From positions 192,001 to 256,000 of the forward strand of contig OY760686.1 of NCBI GenBank assembly GCA_963663865.1: a DNA stretch of 64,000 bases, in the 5' to 3' direction. Positions within the stretch are counted from its first letter, which is position 1. Each line of letters starts with the position of its first letter. Position numbers and translations under genes: made by a program. This DNA is from Spirochaetota bacterium. GTDB lineage: Bacteria; Spirochaetota; UBA4802; UBA5550. Below the pieces are notes generated by a model that worked only from the letters and a program-made list of their open reading frames with translations, did no database searches and had not been told where the DNA came from. Shown here piece by piece: positions 18,908 to 59,677 of the stretch.

Positions 18908-20128
18908 TCAGATGAGAGGCCTGTCCGGGCCTTTGCTTTTCCGGTAATTCGATGGGCTTGTGGCAAGGTATTTCGAGAATGTCCGGTTAAAGGTGTTTTT
19001 GGAATTGAATCCCGATTTAAACGCGACTGAGATCATCTTTTCTTCAGACTCCTCAGAGATTATTCTCCTGGCCTCTTCTACTCTGAATTTATTCACAAAA
19101 TCATAGAAGTTGCATCCGGAATGCTTGTTGATAATCTCTGAAAGGTGGTTTCGGGGGATATCGACCCTTTCAGCAAGGGAACCCAGGGTAAGCTCCGGAT
19201 CAAGATAGTACTTCTGTGTCTTCATAGAGTGAAGCAGCCCCCGATAAAGCTTCTCTGATTCCTCCGCGGATAGTGACGATTTTTTATACTTTGCATCTCT
19301 GTCCTGTCCCCCGGATGGCTGCAGCAGATCATTGTTTGCCGCGTACAATTCCGGGTTCATGAGGAGCTTAAAGCCTATTATAAAGACAATCATTGAAACC
19401 ATCGGCTTATACAGCCCAAAATGGAAGGGATGAACATCAAGACTGAATCCAAAAAAGGAAGCCACATATGTCGACCATATCATTCCGGCGAGGAAGATAT
19501 AGTTTATAGTTATTACATAGAGCAGATATTTGGCCCAGGACAGGTTCACCTTCTCATGGTTTGAATTATGGTGTACGCTTCTCCTGGTGTAACGCGATAA
19601 AAGCCGATGAGTCAGGGCGATATAGACAAGCACCTGAACAAGAAATATATTGGCGTTATGCTCAATTCTGAAATGATAGGCCGGATCATTTGTGCCGGTG
19701 CTGACTCCATGGAAAAATGCCTCCGGATTTTCAGGCGTAATAAAGTATATTGGAAACAACATAGCCAGAGGTATTATGATGTTTAAAAGATGCAGAAAGT
19801 CTTTCCTGTCAAATTGAATTCTCGGTTCAGACACATACTTTATATACAGGTAGAGAAGCGGGCCGACAAGATACTCGACAGTCATATCAGTGCACTTTAA
19901 AAATGAGGCCCCGAAGTACAATATGAACGGAACAAGCCCCATCAAGAGCATGTGATAGCTGAAAAAAAGCAGGAAGAGACCGAGAAGTATATTGTTGACT
20001 CTTGTTCCCCGTTTGATTTTAAAAAGCAACGCGCTAATAAAGAAACAAAAGATGATAGCTACAAAACAAACAATCGAATGAATCTCAAACTCCATGTTCA
20101 TCCCCCGAAATAAAGCAGTGATATCCAT
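18908..20128 (-). CDS. Membrane-anchored AraC family transcriptional regulator
   Basis: About 7 N-terminal TM segments; C-terminal YLDPELTL..LA, NFYDFVNKFRVEEA, SGFNSKNTFNRTF; true start may be near 20101. Confidence 0.88.
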   Translation of the reverse strand: MDITALFRGMNMEFEIHSIVCFVAIIFCFFISALLFKIKRGTRVNNILLGLFLLFFSYHMLLMGLVPFILYFGASFLKCTDMTVEYLVGPLLYLYIKYVSEPRIQFDRKDFLHLLNIIIPLAMLFPIYFITPENPEAFFHGVSTGTNDPAYHFRIEHNANIFLVQVLVYIALTHRLLSRYTRRSVHHNSNHEKVNLSWAKYLLYVITINYIFLAGMIWSTYVASFFGFSLDVHPFHFGLYKPMVSMIVFIIGFKLLMNPELYAANNDLLQPSGGQDRDAKYKKSSLSAEESEKLYRGLLHSMKTQKYYLDPELTLGSLAERVDIPRNHLSEIINKHSGCNFYDFVNKFRVEEARRIISEESEEKMISVAFKSGFNSKNTFNRTFSKYLATSPSNYRKSKGPDRPLI

Positions 20129-20162: not shown

Positions 20163-22988
20163 TTATTGAGATACGACCGTAAAGCTGTATGATCCGGAAC
20201 CGACACTGAAACGGCGGTAGCCGTCAACGGCGTCGAGCTCAGTGACTCCTTCTGAATCAGCCGCCGGGACACAGCCTTCGGTTACTGAATCATTTCCGTC
20301 TCCGGGCACACAAACCGTGGCTGTCGTATTTGGCGGAACAGTTACTGAGAGAGAAAAGCCGCTGGCGGTTTCAGCCCACTCGCTTGATATTAGGCCGTAA
20401 ACCGATTCGAATGTACCCTTCGCAGAGGTCAGTCCGCCGCCAGGCCTCGGCATGATAGTGAGCTCACGGAATCCCGGGCTGTCCGCCCTGATGCCCGCTA
20501 TGTTCCTGTACATCCAGTCGCCGACAGCTCCATAGGCGTAGTGGTTGAAAGAGGTCATGTCCGTGGTCTGATATGAGCCGTCCTCTTTCCGCGAGTCCCA
20601 TCGCTCCCACATTGTCGTAGCCCCGACAGTAACAGGATAGAGCCATGAAGGATAATCTTCAAGCAATAAAAGATCATAAGCCTCTTCAAGGTAGCCGTTA
20701 TCACTCAGCGCCGGCAAGAGGCAGGGCGTTCCAAGAAATCCGGTACTAAGATGCCCGCCGTTATTTGCAAGACGGAATTTGAGATTCAAAACAGCGCTCT
20801 GCTTCCTGCTCTCCTCAAGTATTCCAGTCGCGAGAGGAAGAGCGTAGGCAGTCTGGCTTCCAGTGCTTATAGTGCCGTCCGGGGCCACATAGTCCCGGCT
20901 GAAAGCATTCTTAACGGCGGCTGACAGTTCAGACATTGTCTGAGAATCAGCCTCTTCTCCAACAGCGGCGGCCATTTCAGACATAAGCCCTGTAACGTAG
21001 GCGTAATATGCCGTTTTCAACATTGTTTTGTCTGTCTCATCGTCAAGATTAAGATGGTCGCCCCAGGCGTAGTAGCTGTCACCCGGTATGCAGTCCACTG
21101 CGACCGCGGAAACACTGTCAATGTAATCCATCATGGCCTGATAGTTTTCCGTTATAACATCAGTCTGGCCGTATCTCTGCCAGAGTACGTACGGCACAAT
21201 AATGACAGCGTCAGCCCATCCAACCCTTCCCCACTTGACATTCCATTCATTTGTTCCCGGTGTCAAATTGGTATCAGGCACAATATTCGGAATTTCGCCT
21301 GTTTCGCTGTTCTGAGCGTCCCTCATGTCCTGCATCCACTTGTCACCGAGAAAAGCGTAAGCGTCGACAAGGTATGTCGCGCTCGGAGAGAAAAGCTGAG
21401 CGTCAGCGGTCCATCCGGCACGCTCGTCCCGCTGCGGGCAGTCTGTAGGAACGCTGAAGAAGTTGCTCCTGAGGCTCCACTCGATATTGCTCTGAAGCTG
21501 ATTCACGAGCTCATTCGACGTTGTAAATGTGCCTGTGACCGGCGTATTTGTTGTCATTACAAGTCCTGTTATTGTGTCCTTCGAAGGAGACGAAGAGAGC
21601 CCGGTCGCCTCGACATATCTGAAGCCGTGATATGTGAAGCGGGGAACATAGACTTCTGTACCCTCGCCCTTAAGCGTATAGATATCCGTCGCGTCGGCGG
21701 TCCTGAGATTCCCGACGTATATATCGTTTGCGGCGGCGCCGGCCGGATCTTTACCATACGAAGGCTGAAGAACCTCAGCGTGCCTTAACGTGACAGTCTG
21801 GCCTGCTTCTCCTTTGACTTTAAGCCTTACTTTTCCGGCAAAATTCTGGCCGAGGTCAAAGATATAAACCCCGGGCTTGGAACCTGATTCCCAGAAGTCA
21901 ACCGGTTCAATCTCCTTTATGACCTGTACCGGCTGGTCCTTTTGAGCGGCTATGGCGCCGCTGTAGCTGAAGGTGGATGGAGTGCCCCATGCGGAGTCAT
22001 CATATCCGGGTTTGTCCCACCCTGTAAGCTCCTTTCTTGCGTCATAAGTCTCGCCGTCAAAGTTGCTTGTAGAGCGTATTGGGCCGTCAGCCGTGGCCTT
22101 CCATGTGCTGTCGGTCACCATAGTTTCAGATGTTCCGTCTTTATACTCAATCTTCAGCTGGGCAAGAAGACATGGATTGTCTCCGTAGACCCTCAAATGG
22201 CCGAGATTCATCGCGTGCTCTCCGGTGTACCATCCGGCGCCGAGGATTCCGCCGATAGCATTATCCCCCTTTTTCAAAAGAGACGTAACATCATAGGTCT
22301 GGTACTGAACCCTTTTGTTATAGTCCGTGAAACCTGGAGCCATTTCATCCTTTCCGGCCTTCTCACCGTTGATGTACATCTCGTACACGCCAAGGGCCGT
22401 GCAATAGAGATACGCCCTGCTGACCTCTCCACTTAAGGAAAACTCCTTCCGAAGATAAGGGCTGGGATAAACATCCGGAACCTGAACAAGTCCTATCCAC
22501 TGTCCCTGCCACTCCGACTGATCGACAATTCCGGTATGAAAGAATGCAGCGTCGGTCCAGTCAAGCTCCATGTCATTCTGATCCCAGAGCTTAACCTTCC
22601 AGTAATAAGTCTTCTGCGGCTCAAGCGCCGGGCCCGTGTACTTAACGCCCAGTGCTTGAGCGGACGGGATTTTTCCGCTGTCCCAGACATCCCCGGCTCC
22701 ACCTGAAAGTATGTCTTCACTTGAAGCCACTATGACTCTGCAGGCAGACTGGAACTGTCCCCTTCCCTCAGACTTCATCTTCCAGCTCAGCCGGGGCGTA
22801 AGCGTCCCTGTACTCATGGGATTTACCCTGTGTTCCACGGTCAATCCGGTTGCCACCGTAGTATTGGAGCTTGCTCCTCCCTTATCGTCGCCGCATGCCG
22901 TAAACCCGGCGGCAAGGAGAACGGCGGAAACAACCATTGAGACCTTATATAGCTTTAAACCCCTGAAGGTCTTTTTTTCTTTCATCAT
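20163..22988 (-). CDS. Alpha-L-rhamnosidase, GH78, lipoprotein
   Basis: Lipobox FTAC; DLGQNFAG, PRFTYHGFRY, PTDCPQRDERAGWTAD, GATTMWERW, SFNHYAYG. Confidence 0.92.
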   Translation of the reverse strand: MMKEKKTFRGLKLYKVSMVVSAVLLAAGFTACGDDKGGASSNTTVATGLTVEHRVNPMSTGTLTPRLSWKMKSEGRGQFQSACRVIVASSEDILSGGAGDVWDSGKIPSAQALGVKYTGPALEPQKTYYWKVKLWDQNDMELDWTDAAFFHTGIVDQSEWQGQWIGLVQVPDVYPSPYLRKEFSLSGEVSRAYLYCTALGVYEMYINGEKAGKDEMAPGFTDYNKRVQYQTYDVTSLLKKGDNAIGGILGAGWYTGEHAMNLGHLRVYGDNPCLLAQLKIEYKDGTSETMVTDSTWKATADGPIRSTSNFDGETYDARKELTGWDKPGYDDSAWGTPSTFSYSGAIAAQKDQPVQVIKEIEPVDFWESGSKPGVYIFDLGQNFAGKVRLKVKGEAGQTVTLRHAEVLQPSYGKDPAGAAANDIYVGNLRTADATDIYTLKGEGTEVYVPRFTYHGFRYVEATGLSSSPSKDTITGLVMTTNTPVTGTFTTSNELVNQLQSNIEWSLRSNFFSVPTDCPQRDERAGWTADAQLFSPSATYLVDAYAFLGDKWMQDMRDAQNSETGEIPNIVPDTNLTPGTNEWNVKWGRVGWADAVIIVPYVLWQRYGQTDVITENYQAMMDYIDSVSAVAVDCIPGDSYYAWGDHLNLDDETDKTMLKTAYYAYVTGLMSEMAAAVGEEADSQTMSELSAAVKNAFSRDYVAPDGTISTGSQTAYALPLATGILEESRKQSAVLNLKFRLANNGGHLSTGFLGTPCLLPALSDNGYLEEAYDLLLLEDYPSWLYPVTVGATTMWERWDSRKEDGSYQTTDMTSFNHYAYGAVGDWMYRNIAGIRADSPGFRELTIMPRPGGGLTSAKGTFESVYGLISSEWAETASGFSLSVTVPPNTTATVCVPGDGNDSVTEGCVPAADSEGVTELDAVDGYRRFSVGSGSYSFTVVSQ

Positions 22989-23075: not shown

Positions 23076-25271
23076 TTAGTCGTAATATCCGCCGCCGCCT
23101 CCGTCATCAGAGCTTGCAGCCCAGCTCATACCTGAACCTATTTTGAATGTTGGTGTCTGGGTATCCGCCGGGACGTCCTCGCTCTGGTTGCTTACCTCAT
23201 AGTCAGACGCGGGGATTTCCATTGGAAGTTTTGCAGTCGGTACAAAGTTGTTCTTGGCAAAAAGGACATCAAGAACAGCCTGGTCTGTGGCTCCGAAATC
23301 AACAAGGAACCCGTCAATATCTCCAATAAATGACGATACAATTCCCGGCCTTCTGGCGTACATTACTACAACGATCTTGAGGTTGGGATTAGTGGCCCTT
23401 GCGTCAATGGCAGCCTGCACCCTTGCAAGTTCGGCAAGAGCCGCTGTTCTGTTGCTGTCCATAGCCTCAGGCATAAAAGTGCCGTCCGGAAGAGCAGTTA
23501 ATCCGTCAAATGAGAGAGGCTCGGATCCGCACATTCCAAATGCGAAGTAGGCAGAAGTTCTTGCCCTTATTCTTATTACCGCCAGTTCGGCGCTGGCAAG
23601 ATCTGAGACAAACTCTACGTCACCGCCTCCGTAGTTTGCTGCAAGGGCTGCCGTATTGGCCTGTCCGCTGTCAGCATCGGCTACCATGCTGTCAAAGTAA
23701 ACCTTGACCGAACCGTCCTCATCCACATCGCTGTTCTCAGCATTTACAGGAAGATACGCTCCATCAACAGCGGAATCATGGTCTTCATTTTTCAGAAGCA
23801 CGATTGACCTTCTCATCGCGTCAAGGCCTGCCGCGGCGTTCTCAGCGCTGTTTACAATTGAAGCAGCCGCTGTTTCATCAACATAGGGGTTCTCAAAGTA
23901 TCCCATATCGAAAAGCGGCGGAAGAACATGACTTGCGGCGTAGTTAACGTCATCATCTGTCAGATAGCCCGATGTGTACGCCTCAGTTATTACATCCGTA
24001 TTGCTAATCATCAGCGACTGATGAGTCCCGGCAATAATGTGGGTTGCCATTCTCTCCGCGGCCGTCAGCGGTTCAACTCCCCAGACCATCATGCTTGTTA
24101 TACCCGCATCGGATACAGCCCAGCCGTTCCAGCCGATGTCATCTATCAGGAGGTCCTGCATCTGCTCAGCGCTGAACGCGGTACCAACCTTCTCAGAGAA
24201 ATATCCGCTTAAATTGATGCTATAGCAGGGCATTACTCCGGCAGGATTGGCCTTAAAGCACTCTCTGAATACACCGAGATGCTCCTCAAAGTTGTTTCCG
24301 GGGAAAACAGTGAATCTGCCCGGATTGTTATGTCCATCAATACCGTCAATCTGAGGGCCATGGCCGGGGAAATGCTTAAGGACGCTTGCGATACCGCCCG
24401 GAACCAGTTTGTCTCCGTTCTGAAGTCCGCGTATCAGCTCAGGAACATTGGCTTTTGCGATTCTGGAGTCCTCTCCGAATGTAGCAGCAACCCTTGTCCA
24501 TCTGGGCTCAGTAGCAAGGTCAGCCATTGGACCAAGGTAGCAGTTCCTGCCAACAGCCTTGAACTCCCGACGCACTACATCGCCGAACTGGCGTGTAAGC
24601 TCAGGATCGTTGATGGCAGCAAGCCCCTCGGGCTGCGGCCACATTGACCAGCATGTTGAAGCGTTTGATGAACCGTCCGCGTGGTGGCAGGGGTCTGACT
24701 TGCACAGATAAGGCACACCGAGTTCCTGCGCTTCGCACAGCTCCTGAATATTGTTGAAGAACTTCGCGGCAGTAGCCGGAGGGGTGCTTGAATCAGTAGA
24801 GCCTCCAAACCTCATCTTCAGGTTAACAATAACATTGGCCGTGCTGGTATACTGAGTCGTGTCAGTTATAAGATTTCCCGACGCATCGTACATTCCGGGA
24901 ACACCGGCATCAACTCCGTTTGAAGTCACCGGACTGTTTGGGCCTCCGCCACTGACTAGACAGGCAAGCTTGAACTCAATGTCCATCTTGCTGACAAGGT
25001 CGGCAACCCTGTCTTCTGTGGCAAGCCGCCAGTCCTCGTACGCGTCTAAAGAGCCGTTGCCGTTTGAGTCTTTAAACTGATAGCCGTCAACCGTAATAGC
25101 AGTTCTTGACCTCACGCCGATTTCAGGCTGTACAAGCTGTCCGTCGACACAGTAAACGCTTTCACAGCCATTCTCTTCCGGGACTTCGCCTGACTTGTCG
25201 TCACCGTCATCCCCGCAGGCAGCGAACAAAAGCAGCATACCCGAGAGAAGAAAAACAAAAAATTTGTTCAT
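23076..25271 (-). CDS. Beta-glucosidase, GH3, lipoprotein
   Basis: Lipobox FAAC; FKDSNGNGSLDAYEDWRL, PMADLATEPRWTR..TFGED, KHFPGHG, SIVLLKN. Confidence 0.9.
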   Translation of the reverse strand: MNKFFVFLLSGMLLLFAACGDDGDDKSGEVPEENGCESVYCVDGQLVQPEIGVRSRTAITVDGYQFKDSNGNGSLDAYEDWRLATEDRVADLVSKMDIEFKLACLVSGGGPNSPVTSNGVDAGVPGMYDASGNLITDTTQYTSTANVIVNLKMRFGGSTDSSTPPATAAKFFNNIQELCEAQELGVPYLCKSDPCHHADGSSNASTCWSMWPQPEGLAAINDPELTRQFGDVVRREFKAVGRNCYLGPMADLATEPRWTRVAATFGEDSRIAKANVPELIRGLQNGDKLVPGGIASVLKHFPGHGPQIDGIDGHNNPGRFTVFPGNNFEEHLGVFRECFKANPAGVMPCYSINLSGYFSEKVGTAFSAEQMQDLLIDDIGWNGWAVSDAGITSMMVWGVEPLTAAERMATHIIAGTHQSLMISNTDVITEAYTSGYLTDDDVNYAASHVLPPLFDMGYFENPYVDETAAASIVNSAENAAAGLDAMRRSIVLLKNEDHDSAVDGAYLPVNAENSDVDEDGSVKVYFDSMVADADSGQANTAALAANYGGGDVEFVSDLASAELAVIRIRARTSAYFAFGMCGSEPLSFDGLTALPDGTFMPEAMDSNRTAALAELARVQAAIDARATNPNLKIVVVMYARRPGIVSSFIGDIDGFLVDFGATDQAVLDVLFAKNNFVPTAKLPMEIPASDYEVSNQSEDVPADTQTPTFKIGSGMSWAASSDDGGGGGYYD

Positions 25272-25353
25272 GAAACTCCTCCTGATACTGTTAATAGTAG
25301 TGTTATTTAAACATCATCTCAATTCAACCAGAGATTATGTTTTTTGCAGAGCT

Positions 25354-26376
25354 TCAGTGACCGCTTTTTTGGGGCGGCCTGAATCCTTCGATTCGGCTAT
25401 GTAATTTTAGAATATAAAATATATCAGTAAGCAGGTTGTGCTGGGCATCTTCAAGCGCCGCGGCTTTGCCCGCGCATAAAGCTTTGGGCATATATTCAAG
25501 GACTATCGGGTTTTGTTTTCTCGAAACGGCCATGGTCCAGACACAGTCTGAGAGAATTTCCCTGAAGAAAGAATTTGTCCGGGCTGAAGACCTCTTTCTA
25601 TTTCTGCGGCCGGCGACCCTGTGAATACCGGACCATGATATGAAACGATGAGCCGAATCGAAGCTGAAAAGCATCTCACCGGCCTCGTAGACAATGGACT
25701 CGGCAAAGTGGAGAGGGACCCCCAATCTGTGATGTATTCTCTTTACCGTGTCCTTACAAAATGATGACAATAATTTGATTTCAGCTTCAATCTGGACGAG
25801 AGAAAGGCCGGGCATTCTGATACGGCTGCACAAAAGCGACAGGGTTAATCGAGCCGCCGGCGGGATTGCTGCTCTGCTATTCAGCAAAAATCTATCGACG
25901 AGAGCCTTTATGCTCTGAATATCAGCGGTTACAGCTTCAGGCTGATTGAGAGTATCTTCTTTGCCTGTTATTCCCATGATATCGCAGAAGCATCTAATTG
26001 ATTCGTTATCTAGCCCCGCTTCCTTGAGAATGCTGAGAGCCCTGTTTTGGCAGGAAAGCCTCTCTTTGACGAGCTCGAATCTGTACCTGTTCAACTCCCT
26101 GAGAACGCGGCGATTATACCGAAGCTCTTCATCCTCTGATTCTGAGGCTGACAGGCATGCGGCAGAACCCCATTCCACGCCCATGTACGGCGCTACTGAT
26201 TCGATCAGAGTTCTGACCCTTCCCGAGAGAGAATGCGCAGCAGAACGCCTGGAACGAAGCTGATCGAAGAAGTCTCCGTTCAGGCGATTTACGGTCCGGG
26301 GCTCAAACATCTCACGGCCGATTCTTTCCGATTTTAATATGGAATCCGCAGTCTTCATGACGGCAGGAAAGCACAA
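25354..26376 (-). CDS. IS110-family transposase-derived protein lacking the RuvC (DEDD) domain; probably catalytically inactive
   Basis: LRELNRYRFELVKER...NRALSILKEA, DIMGITG, LGVPLHFAESIVYEAGE..SFDSAHRFISWSG, TNSFFREIL, GKAAAL..AQHNLL..IFYILK align by eye with the IS110 coiled-coil and Tnp domains; start codon uncertain. Confidence 0.7.
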   Translation of the reverse strand: MCFPAVMKTADSILKSERIGREMFEPRTVNRLNGDFFDQLRSRRSAAHSLSGRVRTLIESVAPYMGVEWGSAACLSASESEDEELRYNRRVLRELNRYRFELVKERLSCQNRALSILKEAGLDNESIRCFCDIMGITGKEDTLNQPEAVTADIQSIKALVDRFLLNSRAAIPPAARLTLSLLCSRIRMPGLSLVQIEAEIKLLSSFCKDTVKRIHHRLGVPLHFAESIVYEAGEMLFSFDSAHRFISWSGIHRVAGRRNRKRSSARTNSFFREILSDCVWTMAVSRKQNPIVLEYMPKALCAGKAAALEDAQHNLLTDIFYILKLHSRIEGFRPPQKSGH

Positions 26377-26398
26377 AAAAAATCAGGAGTCGCCCCTG
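26375..26398 (-). terminator. Probable intrinsic terminator between GH78 and the IS110-derived ORF
   Basis: Minus strand CAGGGG-CGA-CTCCTG followed by A and a long T run. Confidence 0.45.
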
Positions 26399-26506
26399 CC
26401 TATCCGCTGGTGCTATTTTTTATGCTTTTATGGCGGGTTTTCTGCTTTTTCTTCGCGATAACGAGCCTGGACACCTACTCAGAGAATATTATTACGAATG
26501 GACGTA

Positions 26507-29302
26507 TCATTTGTATATAACTTCAAAAACATAGTCTCCCGAGCCTGCCTCAAACAGCGCCGCGTTGTCTTCCCGCTTAAAGCGGCTTACGCCGTCGGCA
26601 CCTTCAGCCGGAACACCGCCCTCAAGGATCGTATCGCCTTCTCCGCACGGAAGCCGAACCTCGGCCGTTGTATTATAAGGAACTGACAGCTCCATTCTGA
26701 ATCTTTCCGGGCCGCTTTGCCAGCTGCACTTAATTTCACCGCAGGGGCAGCGGTATGAAGACTCAGCCGATTTGATATCGCCTCCCGGCATTGGCGCCGC
26801 GTAAAAGCTTTTAAATCCCGGTTCTGCAGGATATAGACCCGCGATATTACGGAACATCCAGTTTCCGACTGAGCCTAAAGCGTAATGGTTAAAGGAGTTC
26901 ATGGCAGCGGACTGATATGAGCCGTCCGGTTTCACGGAGTCCCACCTCTCCCAGACAGATGTGGCCCCTGAATTCACCTGATACAGCCACGACGGGCACT
27001 CCTCCTGAAGCAGCAGCGAATAGGCTGTATCAGTGTATCCGTTCGAAGACAGTGCATCGAGAACAAAGGCAGTACCCTGAAATCCGGTAGTAAGCCGGTT
27101 ACCGTTCAGGCGGACTGCTTCGTCAAGCCGGGCTGCCGCTAATTGCCTCAGGTGTTCATCGGCGATAAGGCCCATTCCCAGCGCAAGGGCATAGGCCGTC
27201 TGGCTTCCCGAATCGACAGTGCCGTCTGAGGCGATATATTTTTCACATATCGCCTCAGACGCGTTGAGACTATAAGCGGTGTTCTCTGAGGATACATCCT
27301 CCATTCCGACAGCGGCCGCCATCCCGGCAAACAGCCTGACGGTGTAAGCGTGATAGGCCGAGTCAATGAAGCGCTGCCCTGTCTCATCCAGCGAAAGCCA
27401 GTCTCCCCATGCCCAGTAATCATCGTCTACAAGGTAGTCCGTTGCTGCGGATTTAACAAAATCGATGTAGGCCCGCATTGCCTCGAAGTTCTCTTCGATA
27501 ATCCGCGTGTCACCATAGAACTTCCACAGCGTATAGGGAACAATTATCATCGCGTCGGCCCATGCCGCGCGTCCCCACTTCTGAGTGCTGTGGTGGGTCG
27601 ATTCGGGGAAGATTGAATCAGGCGCGACATTGGGCACCTGCCCGTCGCTGTTCTGCCCGTCTCTCAGGTCTTTGAGCCACTTCAGTCCCAAAAAGCCCGC
27701 GCAGTCGAGGTTCCAGACGGCAGCCTGCACGAACGCCGCTATATCCCCCGTCCAACCGTTACGCTCGTCACGCTGCGGGCAGTCAGTCGGAACGCTTACG
27801 AAGTTGCTCCTCTGGGTCCGCACAATGTTCTCGTGCAATATGTTCAGCTTTTCATTGGAAGTCCTCATACTGCCGATGCGTTCAATACCGCTGGATAACA
27901 CCTGAGCTGTCAGCTCCGAGCCGTCGGGCGTACCGCTCAGCCCGGTAACCTCTGCATATCGAAAGCCGTGATACGTGAACCGGGGCGTGAACTCCTCAAC
28001 ACCGCCTCCCTTCATGACATATACATCTGTTGCGGCCGCCGTTCTCAGGTTTGCCGTATAGATATCGTCGCCGCCCGCGTCCAGAGGCACCCTGCCGGCT
28101 GCCGGCTGAAGCACCTCCGCGTGACGAATTGTGACAGTCTGCCCCGGGCTTCCCTGTGCGCGCAGAGTGACCCTGCCGGCGATATTGACCCCGAAATCGA
28201 AGATATAGACACCGGGCTTCGTGGATGACTCCCACACGCTGACAGGCTTAAGCTCATCAACAACTCTCACCGGCTCATCGGGCTGAGCCGAGAGCTCTTC
28301 CTCTCCGGGAGAGTACCAGATCGCGTCACTCCAGGCGCTGTCATCAAAGCCGGCCTCATCCCACCCCGAAAGATTCTTACGGGCGTCATGGGTTTCTCCA
28401 AGAAAAAGCGACGAGCTTAAAACCGGCCCGTCCGTAAAGGACTTCCACTTCCCGTCGCTCACAACAGTCTCGAAAGTCCCGTCCTCATATTCGATTTCAA
28501 GCCGGGCAAGCAGCAGAAGCTCATCGCCGTAGATGCATGTTCCCGCGGTCATCCCTATCTCGCCGGCGTACCACCCGGGTGCCAGGACGGCGCCGATGGC
28601 GTTACCACCGCTTTTAACAAGGCCGGTAACGTCGCAGACCTGATACTGAAACCGCTTTCGGTAGTCAGTCCATCCGGGAGAGAGAGCGCCGGTCCCCGCC
28701 CTCACACCGTTTATGCTTATCTCGTAAAGCCCGCAGGCGGTGCTGAAGAGCCTTGCGCTCTTAACTCCGTTGCCGGCAGAGAATTCCCTTCGCAGTACGG
28801 GCAAGGCCGTGCCGCAACCGCCATCCGGGGCGCCAATCCACTTCGCGTCCCAGTCATCACGGCTGAACAGCCCCGTGCTGAAAAAGGCCGGGTCACTCCA
28901 CCGGCTTTCCCTTCCCCGGCTGTCGCGGGTTTTAACCTTCCAGTAATATTTTCGGGAGGATATCAACGGTTTGCCAGCGTACCTTGCCCCTGCTGAAAGC
29001 CCGCTTTTAACCATGCCGGAATCCCACATGTCGCCGCTGCCGGATGCGAGCAGTTGCAAATCATTTGCAACTAAGATTCTAAAGGCGCTCTGGCTGAGGC
29101 CCCTTTCGTTTGACTCAGCCCTCCAGGACAAAGAAGGGGATGCGGAGTCGATCCCTTCGGGGTTTATCCTGTAATCGGTCTTCAAATCCATAAGAACGGT
29201 GCCTTCCGCTAACCCTGCCTCGTTCCCGCCGCCGCAGCCGGCGAACAGGGAGAGAACAGCGCCGGAAGCGGCTATAAAGCTCAGAAATGTTTTGAATTTC
29301 AC
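26507..29302 (-). CDS. Alpha-L-rhamnosidase, GH78, lipoprotein (paralogue of 20163-22988)
   Basis: Lipobox FAGC; PRFTYHGFRY, PTDCPQRDERNGWTGD, GATSVWERW, SFNHYALG; GTG start at 29302 after GGGGA. Confidence 0.92.
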   Translation of the reverse strand: MKFKTFLSFIAASGAVLSLFAGCGGGNEAGLAEGTVLMDLKTDYRINPEGIDSASPSLSWRAESNERGLSQSAFRILVANDLQLLASGSGDMWDSGMVKSGLSAGARYAGKPLISSRKYYWKVKTRDSRGRESRWSDPAFFSTGLFSRDDWDAKWIGAPDGGCGTALPVLRREFSAGNGVKSARLFSTACGLYEISINGVRAGTGALSPGWTDYRKRFQYQVCDVTGLVKSGGNAIGAVLAPGWYAGEIGMTAGTCIYGDELLLLARLEIEYEDGTFETVVSDGKWKSFTDGPVLSSSLFLGETHDARKNLSGWDEAGFDDSAWSDAIWYSPGEEELSAQPDEPVRVVDELKPVSVWESSTKPGVYIFDFGVNIAGRVTLRAQGSPGQTVTIRHAEVLQPAAGRVPLDAGGDDIYTANLRTAAATDVYVMKGGGVEEFTPRFTYHGFRYAEVTGLSGTPDGSELTAQVLSSGIERIGSMRTSNEKLNILHENIVRTQRSNFVSVPTDCPQRDERNGWTGDIAAFVQAAVWNLDCAGFLGLKWLKDLRDGQNSDGQVPNVAPDSIFPESTHHSTQKWGRAAWADAMIIVPYTLWKFYGDTRIIEENFEAMRAYIDFVKSAATDYLVDDDYWAWGDWLSLDETGQRFIDSAYHAYTVRLFAGMAAAVGMEDVSSENTAYSLNASEAICEKYIASDGTVDSGSQTAYALALGMGLIADEHLRQLAAARLDEAVRLNGNRLTTGFQGTAFVLDALSSNGYTDTAYSLLLQEECPSWLYQVNSGATSVWERWDSVKPDGSYQSAAMNSFNHYALGSVGNWMFRNIAGLYPAEPGFKSFYAAPMPGGDIKSAESSYRCPCGEIKCSWQSGPERFRMELSVPYNTTAEVRLPCGEGDTILEGGVPAEGADGVSRFKREDNAALFEAGSGDYVFEVIYK

Positions 29303-29718
29303 ACAGTCCCCCGAAAAACCACTCTGTAAGTTGTGATAGTTTTTCACATTGAATAGATAATTCAACCGAATTATTTCGATTTATCCGGCTAACCAGTAGA
29401 GGGGTTGAAAAGCCCCTTGATTTTGACTTAGCACAGGAAGAGAATCACCTGCAAGCATTGGCCTGCGTTTAGATTTGCCCGCCCCCTTTCCTCCTGCCAG
29501 GACCATTTTTTGAAACTGAAGCTAATTAATGATGGAAATAAAACCTTTTGTGAGCTAAAATTATCGGATCAGAACTCAACGCTTAAAATGGCAAGAAGCT
29601 TATACTGACAGGAAACGGATTCATACTGAACAGGTATTGGGAAGCACATTTTCTGACTGAACAGCCGTTAGATAATGGGGCGAAGACAAAAAGACCTTGA
29701 CTTCTTTAGTATTTTATA

Positions 29719-29738: not shown

Positions 29739-29807
29739 CAGCTTTTAATAAATTCATTGAATCTTATTTTTCAAGTTGATCTATATATTAAAACTCCGGA
29801 GGTCTTT

Positions 29808-32300
29808 ATGACAGGAAGAACCGTTATTGTTGGAGGGGTCGCGGGCGGCGCGAGCACAGCGGCCAGATTGAGACGTATTGATGAAAACGCGGAAATTATA
29901 ATGCTGGAGAGGGGCCCCTATGTCTCGTTCGCAAACTGCGGGCTCCCGTACTATGTAGGCAATGTTATTACCGAACAGAGCGCCCTTGAGCTGATGACAC
30001 CGGAGCTTTTTTTCAACCGATTCAAGGTCGATGTCAGAGTCAGCAACGAGGCTCTGAAAATAGACAGAGCGAAGAAGAAAATTGAGGTTCTTAACCACAG
30101 CACCGGGAAAAAGTACGAGCTTGAATATGACACTCTGGTGCTCTCGCCCGGAGCCTCCCCCATAAAACCGCCCATACCCGGCTCAAATGAAGTCGACCTG
30201 TTCACAGTGAGAACAATCCCTGACTCGGCGGAAATAAAGAAGTACATAGGCGGAAAGAACGTCAGGAGGGCTGTTGTAATAGGCGGAGGCTTCATCGGCA
30301 TAGAAATGGCTGAGAATATGCATCATCTTGGAATAAAAACCACGCTCGTTGAAGCTGCCGATCAGGTGATGCTTCCATTCGACCGCGAGATGGCCCAGTT
30401 CCTTCACCAGGAGATTCTGTTTAACGGAGTCGACCTCATCCTCGACGATCCCGTCGACTCGTTCGCCAGAATTGGCGGCGTTCAGACGGTAAAGACCAAA
30501 TCGGGCGTCCGGATTGAAACCGACATGATTATTCTGGCAATCGGCGTAAGCCCTGACACATCGCTTGCGAAGGACGCCGGACTTGAGCTCGGCCCCAGGG
30601 GGCACATTATAGTAAACGACCAGATGAAAACTTCCGACCCGTCAATATTCGCAGTCGGAGACGCGATACTGTCCAAAAACTTCATAACCGGAGACAGCAC
30701 GGCAGTGCCGCTTGCCGGCCCCGCCAACAGACAGGGCCGTGTCGCGGCTGACAATATCGCGGGAAGAAAATCATCCTTCAAGGGGATAATGGGGACCTCG
30801 GTGGTCAAGATTTTCGGACTCGGCGCTGCCTGCACCGGCCTCAACGAAAAGTCTCTCGCCCTCGCCGGGGATAAGGAGTATGAGAAGGTCTATATCCACC
30901 CCAATCAACACGCCGGATATTACCCCGGAGCAACGCCGCTTACAATTAAGCTTTTGTTCAACAAAAAGAGCGGCAGGGTCCTCGGGGCGCAGGCTATCGG
31001 GGCAAACGGCGCTGACAAGCGTATTGACGTAATATCGGCCCTCATTCAAAAGGGCGGCACAGTTTACGACATGGAAGAGATTGAGCTGGCTTACGCTCCG
31101 CCTTACGGATCTGCGAAAGACCCGGTCAACATGGCGGGCTTTGTAGCGGCCAACACCATCAAAGGCGATGTAAAAATAACGCACTGGTCAGAGGTCGCCG
31201 ACCTTCGCGAAAAGGGGGCCTTCTTTCTCGACACAAGGCAGCCGGAGGAATACGACCTCGGCCGCATTCAGGGATCAGTCAATATCCCCGACACGGAACT
31301 CAGACAGAGACTCGCGGAAGTCCCCAAGGACAAGACTGTTCTTGTCTACTGTCAGGTCGGCTTCAGAGGATACCTCGCCGCAAGGGTGCTTATGCAGAAC
31401 GGCTACAGCGATGTAAGAAACCTCACCGGAGGATTTAAGCTCTACCACATAGCGACCTCGCCTCTCTCAGCGTTCAGCCTCGGAGCCCAGGAGGTCACAT
31501 CAGAGAAAGAACAGATGCTCGGGCGCCCGCTTGACGACATTATTCATCCGTCAATACCGGCTGTCAAAGCGAGCCTTGACTGTTCAGGACTGCAGTGCCC
31601 AGGCCCGATCATGAAGCTTGCCGCGAAGATGAAGGAGCTGCCTCAGGGCTCAGAGCTGAGCATCTCTGCCACCGATCCGGGCTTCGCTTCAGACCTGCCG
31701 GCATGGTGCCGCAGCACCGGGAACGAGCTTGTGTTCCTCGAAAAACGGGGCGAGAAGTTCGAGGGAGCTGTCAGAAAAACGGGTGCAGCGCCCAGACAGG
31801 CGTCAGCCGCCGCGGGCCAGCTGCCCAACGACAAGGCAATCATTCTCTTCAGCGGCTCATTAGATAAGGCTCTCGCCGCGTTTATAATAGCTAACGGGGC
31901 CGCGGCGATGGGCAGAAATGTTACACTCTTCGCGACGTTCTGGGGGCTGAATGTTCTCAAGAAGGACAAGAAGCCGCGCGGCCTGAAGAAGAAGTTTATC
32001 GAGAAGATGTTCGGAAGAATGCTTCCGCGCGGTTCTAAAAAGCTCATTCTTTCTCAAATGCACATGCACGGAATGGGCACATCCATGATAAAGGGCATCA
32101 TGAAGAAGAAAAACGTCGACAGCCTTCCTATTATGATAGACGCGGCTATTAAGGCCGGCGTCAACATAGTCGCCTGCCAGATGAGCATGGACCTCATGGG
32201 CGTGAAGAAAGAGGAGCTGCTTGACGGCGTTCAGATAGGCGGAGTCGCCGCGTTCCTCGAAGCCGCTGAGCATTCAGATACGAGTTTGTTTGTGGGGTAA
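29808..32300 (+). CDS. CoA-disulfide/persulfide reductase-rhodanese-TusA-DsrE fusion protein
   Basis: GGVAGGAS, SFANCGLPY, YAPPYGSAKD, rhodanese YCQVGFRG, TusA LDCSGLQCPGP, DsrE-like FATFWGL and ACQMSMD. Confidence 0.9.
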   Translation: MTGRTVIVGGVAGGASTAARLRRIDENAEIIMLERGPYVSFANCGLPYYVGNVITEQSALELMTPELFFNRFKVDVRVSNEALKIDRAKKKIEVLNHSTGKKYELEYDTLVLSPGASPIKPPIPGSNEVDLFTVRTIPDSAEIKKYIGGKNVRRAVVIGGGFIGIEMAENMHHLGIKTTLVEAADQVMLPFDREMAQFLHQEILFNGVDLILDDPVDSFARIGGVQTVKTKSGVRIETDMIILAIGVSPDTSLAKDAGLELGPRGHIIVNDQMKTSDPSIFAVGDAILSKNFITGDSTAVPLAGPANRQGRVAADNIAGRKSSFKGIMGTSVVKIFGLGAACTGLNEKSLALAGDKEYEKVYIHPNQHAGYYPGATPLTIKLLFNKKSGRVLGAQAIGANGADKRIDVISALIQKGGTVYDMEEIELAYAPPYGSAKDPVNMAGFVAANTIKGDVKITHWSEVADLREKGAFFLDTRQPEEYDLGRIQGSVNIPDTELRQRLAEVPKDKTVLVYCQVGFRGYLAARVLMQNGYSDVRNLTGGFKLYHIATSPLSAFSLGAQEVTSEKEQMLGRPLDDIIHPSIPAVKASLDCSGLQCPGPIMKLAAKMKELPQGSELSISATDPGFASDLPAWCRSTGNELVFLEKRGEKFEGAVRKTGAAPRQASAAAGQLPNDKAIILFSGSLDKALAAFIIANGAAAMGRNVTLFATFWGLNVLKKDKKPRGLKKKFIEKMFGRMLPRGSKKLILSQMHMHGMGTSMIKGIMKKKNVDSLPIMIDAAIKAGVNIVACQMSMDLMGVKKEELLDGVQIGGVAAFLEAAEHSDTSLFVG

Positions 32301-47931: not shown

Positions 47932-48147
47932 TCAGTTCACATAATACCAGTAAAAATCATTCATCGCCTTTTGCAGTGATTCTGAATTAACTTTTTCCTG
48001 TTCTATATAATTTGATAATGTCAAATATGCTTCACGGAAGTTTCCATTATCAAACTGTTTCCTAAAAACTTCCAAATTATCTTTATGTTTAAAATCTAAG
48101 TTGTTAAGTTCTTTTACAAGATTATTGTAATATTCTTTATTTATCAT
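47932..48147 (-). CDS. Putative immunity protein of the RHS toxin
   Basis: Small AT-rich ORF overlapping the toxin stop codon (ATGA coupling). Confidence 0.7.
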   Translation of the reverse strand: MINKEYYNNLVKELNNLDFKHKDNLEVFRKQFDNGNFREAYLTLSNYIEQEKVNSESLQKAMNDFYWYYVN

Positions 48148-51100
48148 TTTTTTAACTCAAAAAGTTGAAAGTTATTAATAAATTTAGACGTAACAGCTTG
48201 AGTACCACCACCTTTTCCCCATTGAGGCATGGTTTTGCATATTGGTTCAAGATTAAATCCGGTTCCCCATTTACCTTTCGGAATAGTGATATTATTAATT
48301 ATTTGTAGGGTATCAAATTTGCCATAGTGAGAAGGAGAGCTAGGCAGTTGAAGTAAATTTTTAACTTCATTCCTATTAAATCTACTTAAATCATTAAATG
48401 TGAAGTATGTAGTTTCACCTTTTGACATTATATTCCCTTTTAATGCACTATCAATCGCAGGTTGATTTAATGCCCTATACCCAGTCGACGGCACAACATC
48501 CCCATTAGGTTTAACATAAAAGTCTGCTTTAGGTTTTGCAATACTTTTATTGTGTTTTATACCCTTGCCACCACCTCTCCCGGCCCGACTCCAGCTAATC
48601 CCTCCAACAAACATCATCTCCCGGAATTCGCTGAGGTTCTTCGGAGCCACAAGAAGAGCAGCTTTGGAAACGCCGGCACTGGCCGCGTGATAAATGGTCT
48701 TCAGACAGTTCGAAGTCTTAAACGAATTAATGGTCTGCTCGGAGTGGTACCTGTCGTTGTACTCCAAAGCCTCCCTTACAGTCATAATCGACCGGTCAGC
48801 GATTTGCTCAACGTCTATATTCCCGCTCGGATCCCCGAATCCCACCGGATTATTCCGGCAGTACGAGTAACGGTTCCAGCTCTGGGTGTCGTCCTCGTAG
48901 GGAACAACCGAGTCAGCGGTCACAAAGCGGCACAGGCCGGCGTCGTAGTGGCGCGCGTTGAAAAAGATCAGGCCGCTTTCGCGGTCGGTTTCCTGCGAAT
49001 TGAACTTAGGCCGGTATTTCGCAGCGCCTTCAGAGAACCAGCTGCCTCCGAAGGGCAGGTATTCGGTCTTCGAAACGGGCAGGCCGTTATCATCTACTAC
49101 AAGTTTAACAGAATCGAGATGATCAGTCAAATAAAACCGTGCGTCCCCGTTGGCGGCAACTGCAGCAATGCGGATGCCGTTCAGATATAGGTGGTTCACG
49201 GAACACATCGTTCCCGGCGAGTCGTGAAGTCCGTCCGGAACGCTCTGTTCAAGCGCGAAGTACATTGACGGGCTGAGCACTTCCATGTGCGGAGACTTTC
49301 CGGCGGTGTCCGTTATCAGTTTCCTGATACGGAAGCCCTGCTCGTCGTAATGGTATTCACCCGCGGCGATGCCCGATGAGTCGTCTATGACCTTCCGTAT
49401 CCGGCTGGACGCGTCGTACTCAAGACGCCTGGTCCCATCCCCCGCAGATGACTGGTAGACCATGTTGCCGGAGGCGTCGTAGCGCATAACGCTCCCGCCC
49501 GTAGCGGAGGATATTTCCGTCAGAGCGTGGCCGCCTCCCGAATAGCTGCAGGTCATCTCTTCATGCCGGGTGCCTTCCGGCCCGCTTGCCGAGGCGCTCC
49601 GCGAGATCATGTTTCCGTTGGCCGTATAGCCGTAGCTGTGCGAGTATTTTCGAGCCTCAAGGCTATCGGATGATTTTAGAACACCCTCGCCCGCGACGAG
49701 CCGGTTCAGTCCGTCGTATGAGTAGCGGTGTGAGACTTGAGTGCCGGCAGCTCCGCCCGGCCGGAGCTCCGAGAAGTTTACTATTGAGGCGACGCTGTTG
49801 TCGTTCCTGAGCGTGTAGTTCACGTCCTCGAGTTTCCGTGTCATGCCGTTCGATTCTGTCGTGCTCAATATGCCGGTCAGCCTTCCGCGCGCGTCGTATG
49901 AGTATGTGCTTTCGGTGCCGTTGCCGCGTTCTATCGATTCGAGCTGACCGTCTTCGCTGTACGCTATGCGTTCAATCACGTCTCTTTTTTTACCGGAGGA
50001 TATTACTCTCACCGACTCGGCGCCCGCCGATCCGAGAGTGTACTCGGCGCGTATTCCCGAGGCAGTGCGCGGGTCTCGCGGATAGTCAACTGCCGTGAGC
50101 CGGCCCTGCAGGTCATACTCAAAGCGGGTGGTGAAACTCAATCCAGGCTGGTCGCCTGATAACGGGTCGGTGAAGGTGCGCGTCTCGCGGATGACCCTGC
50201 CTGTTTCGTCGTAGCAGAAGTCCTTTCTCTGGAAGGGGCCTATGATTGCAGCGAGGCGCCCGGCCGTGTTCCCCGGACTCTCAGCTCCGCCGTAGATGAA
50301 TCGGGTAGTCTCAATAACGTCAGTCCCTGCGTGAGAAGGCGCGCGGCTTTCTGTTACGCGCCCAAGGCAGTCGTAGTCCATCTCGCTGCGAAGGCCGCGT
50401 GCGTCTATTACAGCCGAGTTCTCTCCGTAGGCGTTGTACTCGAAGCGTGTATATCCGGTGTCAGGACAGCTCGTCTCAACGGGCCGTCCGAATCCGTCGT
50501 ATCTCCACTGGGAGATGCAGTTCCCTGAGCTGTCCCGCGCGCCCGCGGCAAAGAGCGATGGTTCAACTTGAGCACTCATCGCCGCACCGTTCAGGTCCAT
50601 TCTCTTTATGCGCCGTCCAGCCTGATCGTAAGCAAATCCCATTGAGGCCTCGACAAACCTTCCGTCGTCGCCCGTTCCCGAATCGGTGACGTATAGCAGA
50701 AGGCCGCGGCTGTTCGTAACGGTTTTGCGGGTGCGCCTTCCGGTGCGTTCGGTGACAGCCCACGGATTGCCGTAGATGTACTCAAATGAGGTGACGGCCG
50801 GGCCATCTTCGGGTGATGTCTCCGGAAGGGTGATCTTCACCGCGCGTCCGGCGTAGTCGTATTCTGTAAGCGTAGGGTGCTTTTCGCCTCTATGGGGATG
50901 ATACTCTTCCAGTTCATCTGCGCTGCACCAGTCAGCGCGGCTCCTCCGTGTTACTCGGCCGAGTGCGTCATAGGTAGTAAGTCCGCTTTTCACATGCCGG
51001 CCGTTGCCTGCGCTTTTCACCGAGTGAAGCACTCGTCCGCAGCCGTCACCGTACACGGCCTTTTCTATGTCCGGGTCTCCCGATCCGGTGAAGAGCGTAA

Positions 51101-58621: not shown

Positions 58622-58709
58622 AGAGACGCAAGATTTTGCGTCTCTTCAATTGGCTATTATATGCGTCTCTTCAATTCTACGCGTCTCTTCTATTATACGT
58701 GTCTCTTCT
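58622..58709. repeat. REP-like palindrome followed by three degenerate ~18-bp copies of its right arm
   Basis: AGAGACGCAAGATTTTGCGTCTCT then repeated G(C/T)GTCTCTTC units. Confidence 0.85.
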
Positions 58710-59505
58710 AACTTGCAGGCTTTACAGCCTCAATTGACGCTGAAACAACATAATCGGTAATCGGATTTTGAGGAGCCCATTCCCGTATAAATGCTTTGCT
58801 TTCATCTTTCGGGGCAATTCTAATCTGTTCAAATCCGGCATTTTTCAGCATTAGCTTAATTTCGTCTACATTTGCCGCTCCCGCAATGCAGCCTGTATAG
58901 AGAGCCATATCGCTTTTAACTTCCTCTGGAATCTCAACCATCGCAACAACATCCGAGACTGCCAGCCGTCCTCCCTTTTTTAGAACCCGAAAAGTTTCTG
59001 TAAATACACGCTGCTTGTCAGAGGACAGATTAATAACGCAATTGGATATAATCACATCAACCGATTCATCTTCAACGGGTAAATCCTCAATTTCTCCAGA
59101 GCGGAATTCCACATTGCTATAACCGCCCTTTTTGGCGTTTTCTTTTGCCTTCGAAATCATTTCAGGTGTCATATCCACGCCAATCACATGTCCGGATTGA
59201 CCAGCCTTTTTTGATGCAAGAAAACAGTCGAATCCGCCTCCTGAACCCAGATCAAGTACGGTTTCCCCTTCCCTGATTCCTGCCATAATATGCGGATTAC
59301 CGCAGCCCAGTCCCAGATTTGCACCCTGGGGAACAGCGTTTACATCATCCCCTGAATAACCGAGAATCTCTGCCATCTCAAGAGTATTGTCAGATTTACC
59401 GCAACAGGAAGCTGAACAGGAACAGCCGGCAGCCTTAGACTGCGCTGTTCTGCCGTAAGTTTCACGTACTGCTTTTCTAATTATTTCTGACTCGGAATTA
59501 CCCAC
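58708..59505 (-). CDS. arsM: Arsenite S-adenosylmethionine methyltransferase
   Basis: N-terminal CC motif, NLGLGCGNP, VLDLGSGGGFD, IISNCVINL, GCIAGA; GTG start after GGAGG. Confidence 0.92.
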   Translation of the reverse strand: MGNSESEIIRKAVRETYGRTAQSKAAGCSCSASCCGKSDNTLEMAEILGYSGDDVNAVPQGANLGLGCGNPHIMAGIREGETVLDLGSGGGFDCFLASKKAGQSGHVIGVDMTPEMISKAKENAKKGGYSNVEFRSGEIEDLPVEDESVDVIISNCVINLSSDKQRVFTETFRVLKKGGRLAVSDVVAMVEIPEEVKSDMALYTGCIAGAANVDEIKLMLKNAGFEQIRIAPKDESKAFIREWAPQNPITDYVVSASIEAVKPAS

Positions 59506-59563: not shown

Positions 59564-59677
59564 GAAGAGACGCAAGATTTTGCGTCTCTTCAGTTGTACG
59601 CGTCTCTTCAATTGTACGTGTCTCTTCAATTGTACGTGTCTCTTCAATTGTACGTGTCTCTTCAATTGTACGTGTCT
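59564..59677. repeat. REP-like palindrome plus five and a third tandem 18-bp units
   Basis: GAAGAGACGCAAGATTTTGCGTCTCTTC, with units G(C/T)GTCTCTTCA(G/A)TTGTAC running 59582-59677. Confidence 0.92.

Follow-up and report, generated by a model that had tools for sequence, protein, structure and literature searches.

Catalytically inert IS110-like genes form a nine-member family beside GH3-like lipoprotein genes in a Spirochaetota genome

The stretch of DNA analysed here, hereafter the window, comprises 64,000 nt (positions 192001-256000) of the genome of a Spirochaetota bacterium, which consists of a single 3.16 Mb contig (G000). On its minus strand the window contains an IS110-like gene, P0001 (25354..26376; 340 codons plus stop, TTG start), which lacks both the RuvC domain and the catalytic serine of IS110 recombinases. 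It lies between a GH78 alpha-L-rhamnosidase gene upstream (26507..29365, minus strand) and a gene for a GH3-like lipoprotein of 731 aa downstream (23076..25271, minus strand). The original prediction had described an intact open reading frame (ORF), co-oriented with these two genes, and both translation and the annotation of the neighbours confirmed it. The frame is unbroken over 340 codons, for which our own arithmetic gives a chance of about 3e-8 per start at this composition. As had been cautioned, the translational start is unclear: it may be the TTG or an ATG 18 nt inside (26358), where the 334 aa record of the protein collection begins, and no Shine-Dalgarno sequence is present. Genome-wide comparison revealed P0001 as the smallest and most diverged of nine intact, catalytically inert IS110-like genes, all of them located near a gene of one GH3-like lipoprotein family.

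Homology to IS110 is restricted to residues 90-323 of P0001 (25408..26109, minus strand), a conserved core consisting of a coiled coil and a Tnp-type helical domain. Each of the IS110 motifs quoted in the original prediction was present in the translation, namely VLRELNRYRFELVKERLSCQNRALSIL, DIMGITG, GVPLHFAESIVYEAG, FDSAHRFISWSG, NSFFREIL and GKAAALEDAQHNLLTDIFYILK. In the N-terminal 89 codons (26110..26376, minus strand) homology was undetectable: residues 1-89 matched nothing, a DEDD RuvC-like domain was not recognised in them, and a hidden Markov model of the paralogues, run on 24901-27100 in all six frames, found no RuvC remnant. This agrees with the claim that some 85 unrelated residues stand in place of the RuvC DEDD domain. 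The loop that should carry the catalytic serine reads IHRVAGRR (IHRVAGRRNRKRS) in P0001 and CPGNNESAGK in canonical relatives, as seen in an alignment of the family with five such relatives (alignment A2), and the conserved serine is absent from P0001. The C-terminal tail, residues 324-340 plus stop (25354..25407, minus strand), is replaced by an unrelated tail in the orthologue of a second genome.

The NCBIfam IS110 model NF033542 matched residues 89-288 of P0001 with E 1.3e-8 and 34.3 bits, which is below its curated cut-off of 140 bits. Pfam gave no match at E 0.01, and at E 10 only sub-threshold ones (E 0.036 and 0.041): PF01548 aligned with its tail only, the last 30 profile positions covering residues 90-119 (E 0.036), and PF02371 aligned partially over residues 226-288, with 14.7 bits versus a cut-off of 21.3. 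Compared to the genome's own paralogues by hhalign, P0001 matched over residues 90-324 with a probability of 96.8%, and a profile of the eight full-length paralogues detected it with 51-55 bits, corresponding to E of about 1e-14 genome-wide, over profile positions 142-365. Furthermore, P0001 retains all five columns that are invariant across the 42 sequences of alignment A3 and seven of the ten near-invariant ones. A sequence search of the PDB returned chance-level matches only. The homology of P0001 to IS110 proteins, in their coiled-coil and Tnp domains, is real but weak.

An AlphaFold2 model of P0001, built from the 42-sequence alignment, is all-helical with a mean predicted local distance difference test (pLDDT) score of 75.6. 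Residues 1-89 are helical or of low confidence, with pLDDT below 50 at residues 1-43 and 68-79. The top ten Foldseek matches of this model were IS621 or ISCro4 (E about 3e-3, template modelling (TM) score 0.36-0.47), followed by TasH/TasR and then by Nop5/Prp31 (E 0.08-0.5). As its alignment included IS110 proteins, the model leans towards the IS110 fold. The fold relation to IS621, Tas and Nop5 proteins, which had been put forward as established and is described in print (PMC12045711, PMC11213020), was reproduced by these matches.

An all-frame scan of the genome at maximum sensitivity yielded exactly nine matches and zero fragments, and all nine frames are intact. Besides P0001 these are eight IS110-like frames of 367-413 aa (a43, a56, a62, a90, a557, a599, a719 and a1075), every one under the curated cut-off, so that none of the nine genes in this genome reaches it. 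All copies are single-copy with pairwise identities of about 19-50%, and near-identical copies were not found. In the family alignment (A1) every member shows the same conserved motifs, and seven of the nine copies have an isoelectric point of at least 8.8 (9.5 in P0001). A stretch of about 125 residues that includes a predicted RuvC-like sheet remains in the eight other members but not in P0001, leaving the latter short of the full three-domain architecture. Concordantly, the model of paralogue a557 (pLDDT 85.6, predicted TM score 0.82) is three-domain and IS621-like, includes the RuvC-like sheet and matched IS621 over its full length (Foldseek E 4e-11, TM score 0.61-0.64). The nearest canonical relatives are IS110 transposases of about 410 aa from metagenomes, Streptomyces and Rhodopila, plus those of three genomes of the same phylum (G017, G217, G122). 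In a quick maximum likelihood tree the paralogues and P0004, a protein encoded on a 12.5-kb ENA contig, formed one group with an approximate likelihood-ratio support of 82, on branches of 1.4-2.4 versus a canonical median of 0.43.

In IS621, mutating any one of D11, E60, D102, D105 and S241 is described to abolish recombination (PMC11208158). The five canonical relatives in A2 retain the motifs GLDVHK, MESTGxYW, KTDxxD and CPGNNESAGK; not one of these is kept in the eight paralogues or in P0001. All five residues required for recombination are lost family-wide, and in the P0001 copy the RuvC domain is wholly lost. The family columns in A1 contain no conserved acidic, Ser or Tyr substitute for the DEDD and Ser residues; the invariant ones are hydrophobic or Gly, Pro or Arg, plus one Glu that canonical members share. 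The description of P0001 as IS110-derived and catalytically dead was borne out by the missing RuvC domain and serine. The loss of catalytic residues, described in the original prediction for this copy, turned out to be a trait of the whole family.

Each of the nine IS110-like genes has a gene of the GH3-like lipoprotein family, its conserved partner, at a distance of 46-1781 bp. P0001 is located 62-86 bp upstream of this partner and co-oriented with it, and the upstream, co-oriented arrangement is shared by seven of the nine copies (P0001, a1075, a599, a90, a557, a719 and a62), with a56 and a43 located downstream. Of at least 22 GH3-like loci counted in the genome at E 1e-20, eight are accompanied by an IS110-like gene no more than 417 bp away. 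When nine genes were placed at random 20,000 times, no trial put more than four of them within 2 kb of a GH3-like locus. The linkage of the IS110-like genes to GH3-like genes is non-random. AraC-type (HTH_18) regulators with several membrane helices, as judged by eye, close five modules. The locus of P0001 has an AraC-type regulator of 406 aa (18908..20128, minus strand; 26-28% identity to the AraC-type genes of five other modules) past a second GH78 gene (20163..22988, minus strand), which stands between the GH3-like gene and the regulator. The suggested synteny with GH78 and GH3 genes was upheld for the GH3-like partner, which recurs at all nine loci, mostly in company with membrane AraC regulators, and failed for GH78, since no such partnership is conserved at the other eight loci.

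The single large gap, between a62 and its GH3-like gene, is occupied by an IS3-type integrase-core ORF (rve, rve_3, HTH_21; L153, genome 60915-61772, plus strand). With this ORF regarded as inserted between the two, the GH3-like gene has a dead IS110-like gene on either side (a62 and a56). A 5S rRNA gene (L036 3243-3359, minus strand; genome 63584-63700) lies about 600 bp upstream of a62, which puts this copy at the end of an rRNA operon. Some GH3-like cassettes have no IS110-like gene, for example the one at genome 571.5-573.8 kb, where the GH3-like gene (571521-573879, minus strand) is broken by a frame change into frames of 162 and 631 aa and is followed by a 386-aa frame that starts like the AraC-type neighbours.

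Selection was assessed for the closest paralogue pair, a557/a719. Nei-Gojobori (NG86) estimates were dN 0.395 and dS 1.66, a ratio of about 0.24 that is only rough because dS is saturated; the GH3-like and AraC neighbours of the pair gave dN/dS values of 0.13 and 0.25. The pair is under purifying selection, and the dN/dS check suggested with the original prediction, made on that pair, came out in favour of constraint. The two loci (genome 555400-562700 and 717300-724500) represent a mosaic duplication, in which DNA identity is 83% from 42 nt before the GH3-like start through the end of the AraC gene and 66% in the IS110-like gene, and the DNA upstream does not align. This suggests either that the cassette was homogenised later by gene conversion or that the IS110-like genes diverged from each other earlier.

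In a second, related genome, five of the nine family genes, P0001 among them, have intact orthologues. Identities are 98.1% for a1075, 97.6% for a62, 97.2% for a90, 96.9% for a557 and 92.4% for P0001 versus its orthologue P0125 (340 aa), and nine ordinary genes in the same two-genome comparison range from 90.5 to 98.9%. Furthermore, a43 and P0004 align gap-free with 80% identity. A third assembly probably stems from the window organism itself (one protein looked up in it is letter-identical); several of its IS110-like, GH3-like and AraC genes are split into pieces. A split of the a43 orthologue (83 + 312 aa) was considered as a real breakage and rejected; as genes of the neighbouring families are likewise split there, we treated it as an assembly artefact, and the frameshifts of this assembly look like assembly errors.

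Beyond these genomes, a word-indexed protein search with P0001 returned P0001 itself only, and a search of 40 relatives returned weak matches to canonical IS110 only. We detected no member of the dead family in 63 further genomes of the GTDB family, in 121 others of the order or in 400 sampled from the phylum, and the strongest outside matches that were read (in G017, G217 and G122) were canonical IS110. When 5.8 billion proteins were searched by word index, once with the family alignment and once with a557 alone, the matches were proteins of the own genome, P0004 and P0005, and then canonical IS110. Homologues with the same loss of the RuvC domain, whose lack had been named in the original prediction as speaking against it, amounted to the one orthologue in the sister genome. 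Canonical members of the same subgroup occur in 5 of the 400 other phylum genomes sampled (two of them read) and in G017, which belongs to the same family. A search of 25 relatives at E 1e-60 did not detect the GH3-like family; distant GH3-like homologues of 29-38% identity are widespread, and none of 80 loci of GH3 homologues in other organisms had an IS110-like frame. In the literature we found no bacterial inactive IS110 protein or family that is retained, with the limit that similar RuvC-less proteins might be listed in the clade tables of the TIGR-Tas paper.

We favour the reading that P0001 belongs to a lineage-specific, nine-member family of exapted, catalytically inert homologues of IS110 ('bridge') recombinases, fixed beside GH3-like cassettes that usually include a membrane AraC regulator, and we hold it with evenly balanced confidence. 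There is good support for an inactive IS110 family that has been exapted. The originally suggested selection for a non-catalytic role is plausible given nine intact dead paralogues beside GH3-like genes, the purifying selection on one paralogue pair and the conservation of the P0001 core in the second genome. We propose that an IS110 element of the CPGNNESAGK subgroup, native to the phylum, colonised GH3-like/AraC cassettes that had expanded in this lineage, and that its recombinase lost catalysis yet would have stayed as an intact, constrained and basic protein. The domain roles described for IS621 assign dimer formation to the coiled coil, recognition of conserved bridge-RNA nucleotides to the Tnp domain and the synapse between dimers to the RuvC domains (PMC11208158). 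By these roles, P0001 has kept the portions that serve dimerisation and the binding of RNA, and a RuvC-less form would bind but neither synapse nor cleave. The protein would no longer move DNA and was probably retained as a basic, presumably dimeric nucleic-acid-binding module. Its most likely role would be that of a non-catalytic nucleic-acid-binding factor on its own cassette, which would act in cis, for instance by binding RNA or a DNA/RNA structure and thereby modulating expression of the GH3-like and AraC genes, much as nuclease-dead TnpB derivatives gave rise to the TldR regulators.

Several observations weigh against the exaptation of this family as a whole and of P0001 in particular. 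The dead family is confined to one lineage, the dN/dS ratio is blurred by saturation, and an exact-sequence look-up, which does not show absence, did not find the other four of the nine paralogues in the second genome. P0001 is itself an outlier: leave-one-out family profiles scored it at 49-57 bits versus 149-357 bits for true members, and in the quick tree it sits on a branch of 5.76 with unsure placement. Past residue 323 its C-tail differs wholly between the two genomes; the sister tail ends in AVEALQKT and, read by eye, appears to be another reading frame of the window DNA. The adjacency to GH3-like genes could partly stem from a target preference of the ancestral insertion sequence. Moreover, expression of P0001 is doubtful because it lacks a Shine-Dalgarno sequence, which the GH3-like genes carry as AGGAGG, and because its start directly follows a terminator-like hairpin, CAGGGGCGACTCCTG, with a run of eight T residues at 26398-26384.

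This hairpin is part of the 130 bp spacer 3' of the GH78 stop (26377..26506, minus strand) and looks like the terminator of the GH78 gene. The hairpin and T run described in the original prediction are indeed present; the guide RNA proposed for the same spacer found no support in an Rfam match, a conserved structure or an unusual fold. The folding stability of a 162-nt stretch that includes the spacer does not exceed that of shuffled sequences (z 0.17), Rfam had no match in the window, and in ten related loci it matched just 5S rRNA plus two sequences at chance level. An all-against-all comparison of the 18 flanks of the nine genes gave short matches only, with no conserved element or consistent structure. 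That no RNA partner came to light in these comparisons counts against the favoured reading; a bridge RNA, or one that is trans-encoded or fast-evolving, may still exist. The strong structures flanking a43 and a56 represent terminator hairpins that belong to the gene upstream, three canonical relatives differed too much in their upstream regions for an RNA model, and promoter and terminator scans at three other loci were near shuffle expectation. In line with the caveat of the original prediction, no TIGR-like tandem array was found near P0001 or any of the nine loci among genome-wide arrays, and Tandem Repeats Finder detected two 18-nt repeats in the window, more than 32 kb from the gene.

A bolder version, which we consider rather unlikely, is that the nine proteins are 'dead bridge recombinases', that is RNA-guided or RNA-structure-guided DNA/RNA-binding factors, each dedicated to one GH3/AraC carbohydrate cassette, with P0001 as a natural minimal, RuvC-less form. 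To our knowledge, IS110 recombinases are the only enzymes that pair two DNAs with one RNA. P0001 shares homologous coiled-coil and Tnp domains with these bridge recombinases (IS621, ISCro4; NF033542; PF01548 plus PF02371), which are also the best structural matches of the P0001 and a557 models, but differs from them in the missing RuvC domain, DEDD residues and serine and in its score of 34 bits versus the cut-off of 140. The family further differs from a mobile element in that its members are single-copy and fixed beside a host gene family, and neither element ends nor a bridge RNA were recognised.

The route to a regulator would be analogous to that of nuclease-dead TnpB derivatives: TldR proteins are described as TnpB-like nuclease-dead repressors, exapted as RNA-guided transcription factors (bioRxiv 10.1101/2023.11.30.569447). 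Both cases would share ancestry in a transposon-encoded RNA-guided enzyme, loss of catalysis and retention beside particular host genes. However, the TnpB fold is unrelated to IS110, and guide RNA and repression belong to TldR, the likeness being one of analogy. Nop5, Nop56/58 and Prp31 contain a Nop domain, and an origin from IS110-like ancestors has been proposed for them, with Nop5 carrying an inactivated RuvC-like domain and Prp31 none (PMC11213020). They resemble P0001 in the combination of a coiled coil with a helical RNA-binding domain and in the weak Foldseek match given above, but are archaeal or eukaryotic proteins with fibrillarin, L7Ae and snoRNA partners, and by sequence P0001 is far nearer to bacterial IS110. 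The TIGR-Tas paper describes TasA as a solo-Nop protein without nuclease and just remarks on sporadic RuvC-less IS110-like proteins (PMC12045711). TIGR-Tas proteins have a Nop-like RNA-binding fold, and TasH and TasR chains rank just below IS621 for both the P0001 and the a557 model; unlike TIGR-Tas systems, none of the nine loci has a tandem interspaced guide array, and the sequence affinity of P0001 is to IS110 and not to Tas.

The rival explanation that survives best, though unlikely in our judgement, is that P0001 is a relic, an N-terminally truncated and non-functional IS110-like remnant whose frame stays open through recent death or slow drift. This would fit its position as the most diverged member, the loss of the RuvC part, the missing ribosome site behind a terminator-like hairpin and the lack of P0001 homologues beyond the sister genome in the word-indexed search and the 40 relatives. 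The comparison of the two close genomes bears on it in both directions. At positions 1-89, 15 of 83 aligned residues differ (82% identity, 18% divergence) and the C-tail is different, while only 9 of 234 residues differ in the core of residues 90-323 (96.2% identity in the protein comparison). The core lies within the range of ordinary genes and is significantly better conserved than the N-terminus (Fisher p 1e-4). This implies that the IS110-homologous core behaves like a constrained gene and the ends do not; the N-terminal 89 codons may be an unconstrained tail or partly untranslated. Against a relic also speak the 340 codons open in both genomes, the family-invariant residues kept by P0001 and the fact that none of the nine copies is broken.

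It is improbable that the frame is kept open with an irrelevant protein sequence, either as an element between promoter and GH3-like gene that is translated to avoid polarity or as a supply of promoter or spacer. Seven of the nine copies are upstream of and co-oriented with a GH3-like gene, and the 82 bp spacer from P0001 to this gene (25272..25353, minus strand) contains the AGGAGG ribosome site, a promoter-like match (25322-25294) and no terminator-like site. In deep comparisons the family also diverges faster than its neighbours (50% identity versus 84% and 82%). However, the motifs are conserved in all members, with leave-one-out scores of 149-357 bits, the closest paralogue pair has the low dN/dS noted above, two copies follow the GH3-like gene and have strong hairpins in front of them, P0001 itself starts after a terminator-like hairpin, and the P0001 core is more conserved than its N-terminus.

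Quite improbable is a function of the dead copies as dominant-negative inhibitors of incoming active IS110 elements, through dead heterodimers formed by the coiled coil or through titration of bridge RNA. Retention of the coiled coil and Tnp domain with loss of catalysis would suit such a function, as would the lack of any IS110 match above the curated cut-off in this genome and the canonical same-subgroup members in the sampled phylum genomes and G017, but it leaves unexplained why there are nine mutually 20-50% identical copies and why they are strictly placed beside GH3-like genes. A still working recombinase or mobile element with other catalytic residues is scarcely credible, for although the full-length paralogues retain the overall fold, no conserved acidic, Ser or Tyr column stands in for DEDD and Ser, every copy is unique with none near-identical, and P0001 is entirely without a RuvC domain.

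On the favoured reading of an exapted, inert family, the lost catalysis, the intact frames and the tie to one class of carbohydrate-utilisation cassette make the paralogues a testable system of nine natural variants, one of them RuvC-less. They let one ask what the coiled-coil plus Tnp module does without cutting, and whether exaptation of RNA-guided transposases into regulators reaches past TnpB. If the bolder version were true, 'dead bridge recombinases' would be to IS110 what TldR is to TnpB, and a present-day bacterial parallel to the step towards Nop5 and Prp31. If the copies are inert, they would still document how an insertion sequence spread into a single gene family and persisted there as open frames.

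Two short sequence elements attracted attention near these loci. The 21-nt hairpin motif TCCTTGTCGGACAGGACGACA occurs upstream of a557 and a719 and at one further place, in front of the frameshifted GH3-like gene at genome 571521-573879; with three sites only, it was rejected as a family-wide signal. The leader ACTATTTTAGGAGG 5' of GH3-like genes was likewise discarded as an IS110-linked element, as it also precedes copies without an IS110-like neighbour.

Repeats and unusual genes elsewhere are recorded as separate observations. The two repeats of the window (58654-58710 and 59584-59677) are related 18-nt tandem repeats of 3.2 and 5.2 copies, the second being 97% regular. Three arrays at genome 1198897-1199117, 2926152-2926396 and 3009646-3009814 are built of 21/42-nt units in 4 to 11 copies with a palindrome-like TTATGT...ACATAA pattern and have no IS110-like gene nearby, and a 60-nt unit is repeated 10.2 times with a 91% match at genome 1423222-1423839. 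The window further contains a very long ORF of 2485 aa (48144-55601, minus strand). Divergently beside the GH78 gene upstream of P0001 stands a gene (29757-32300, plus strand) for an 847-aa fusion of pyridine-nucleotide disulphide oxidoreductase, rhodanese, TusA and DsrE-like domains, which is of sulfur-carrier type.

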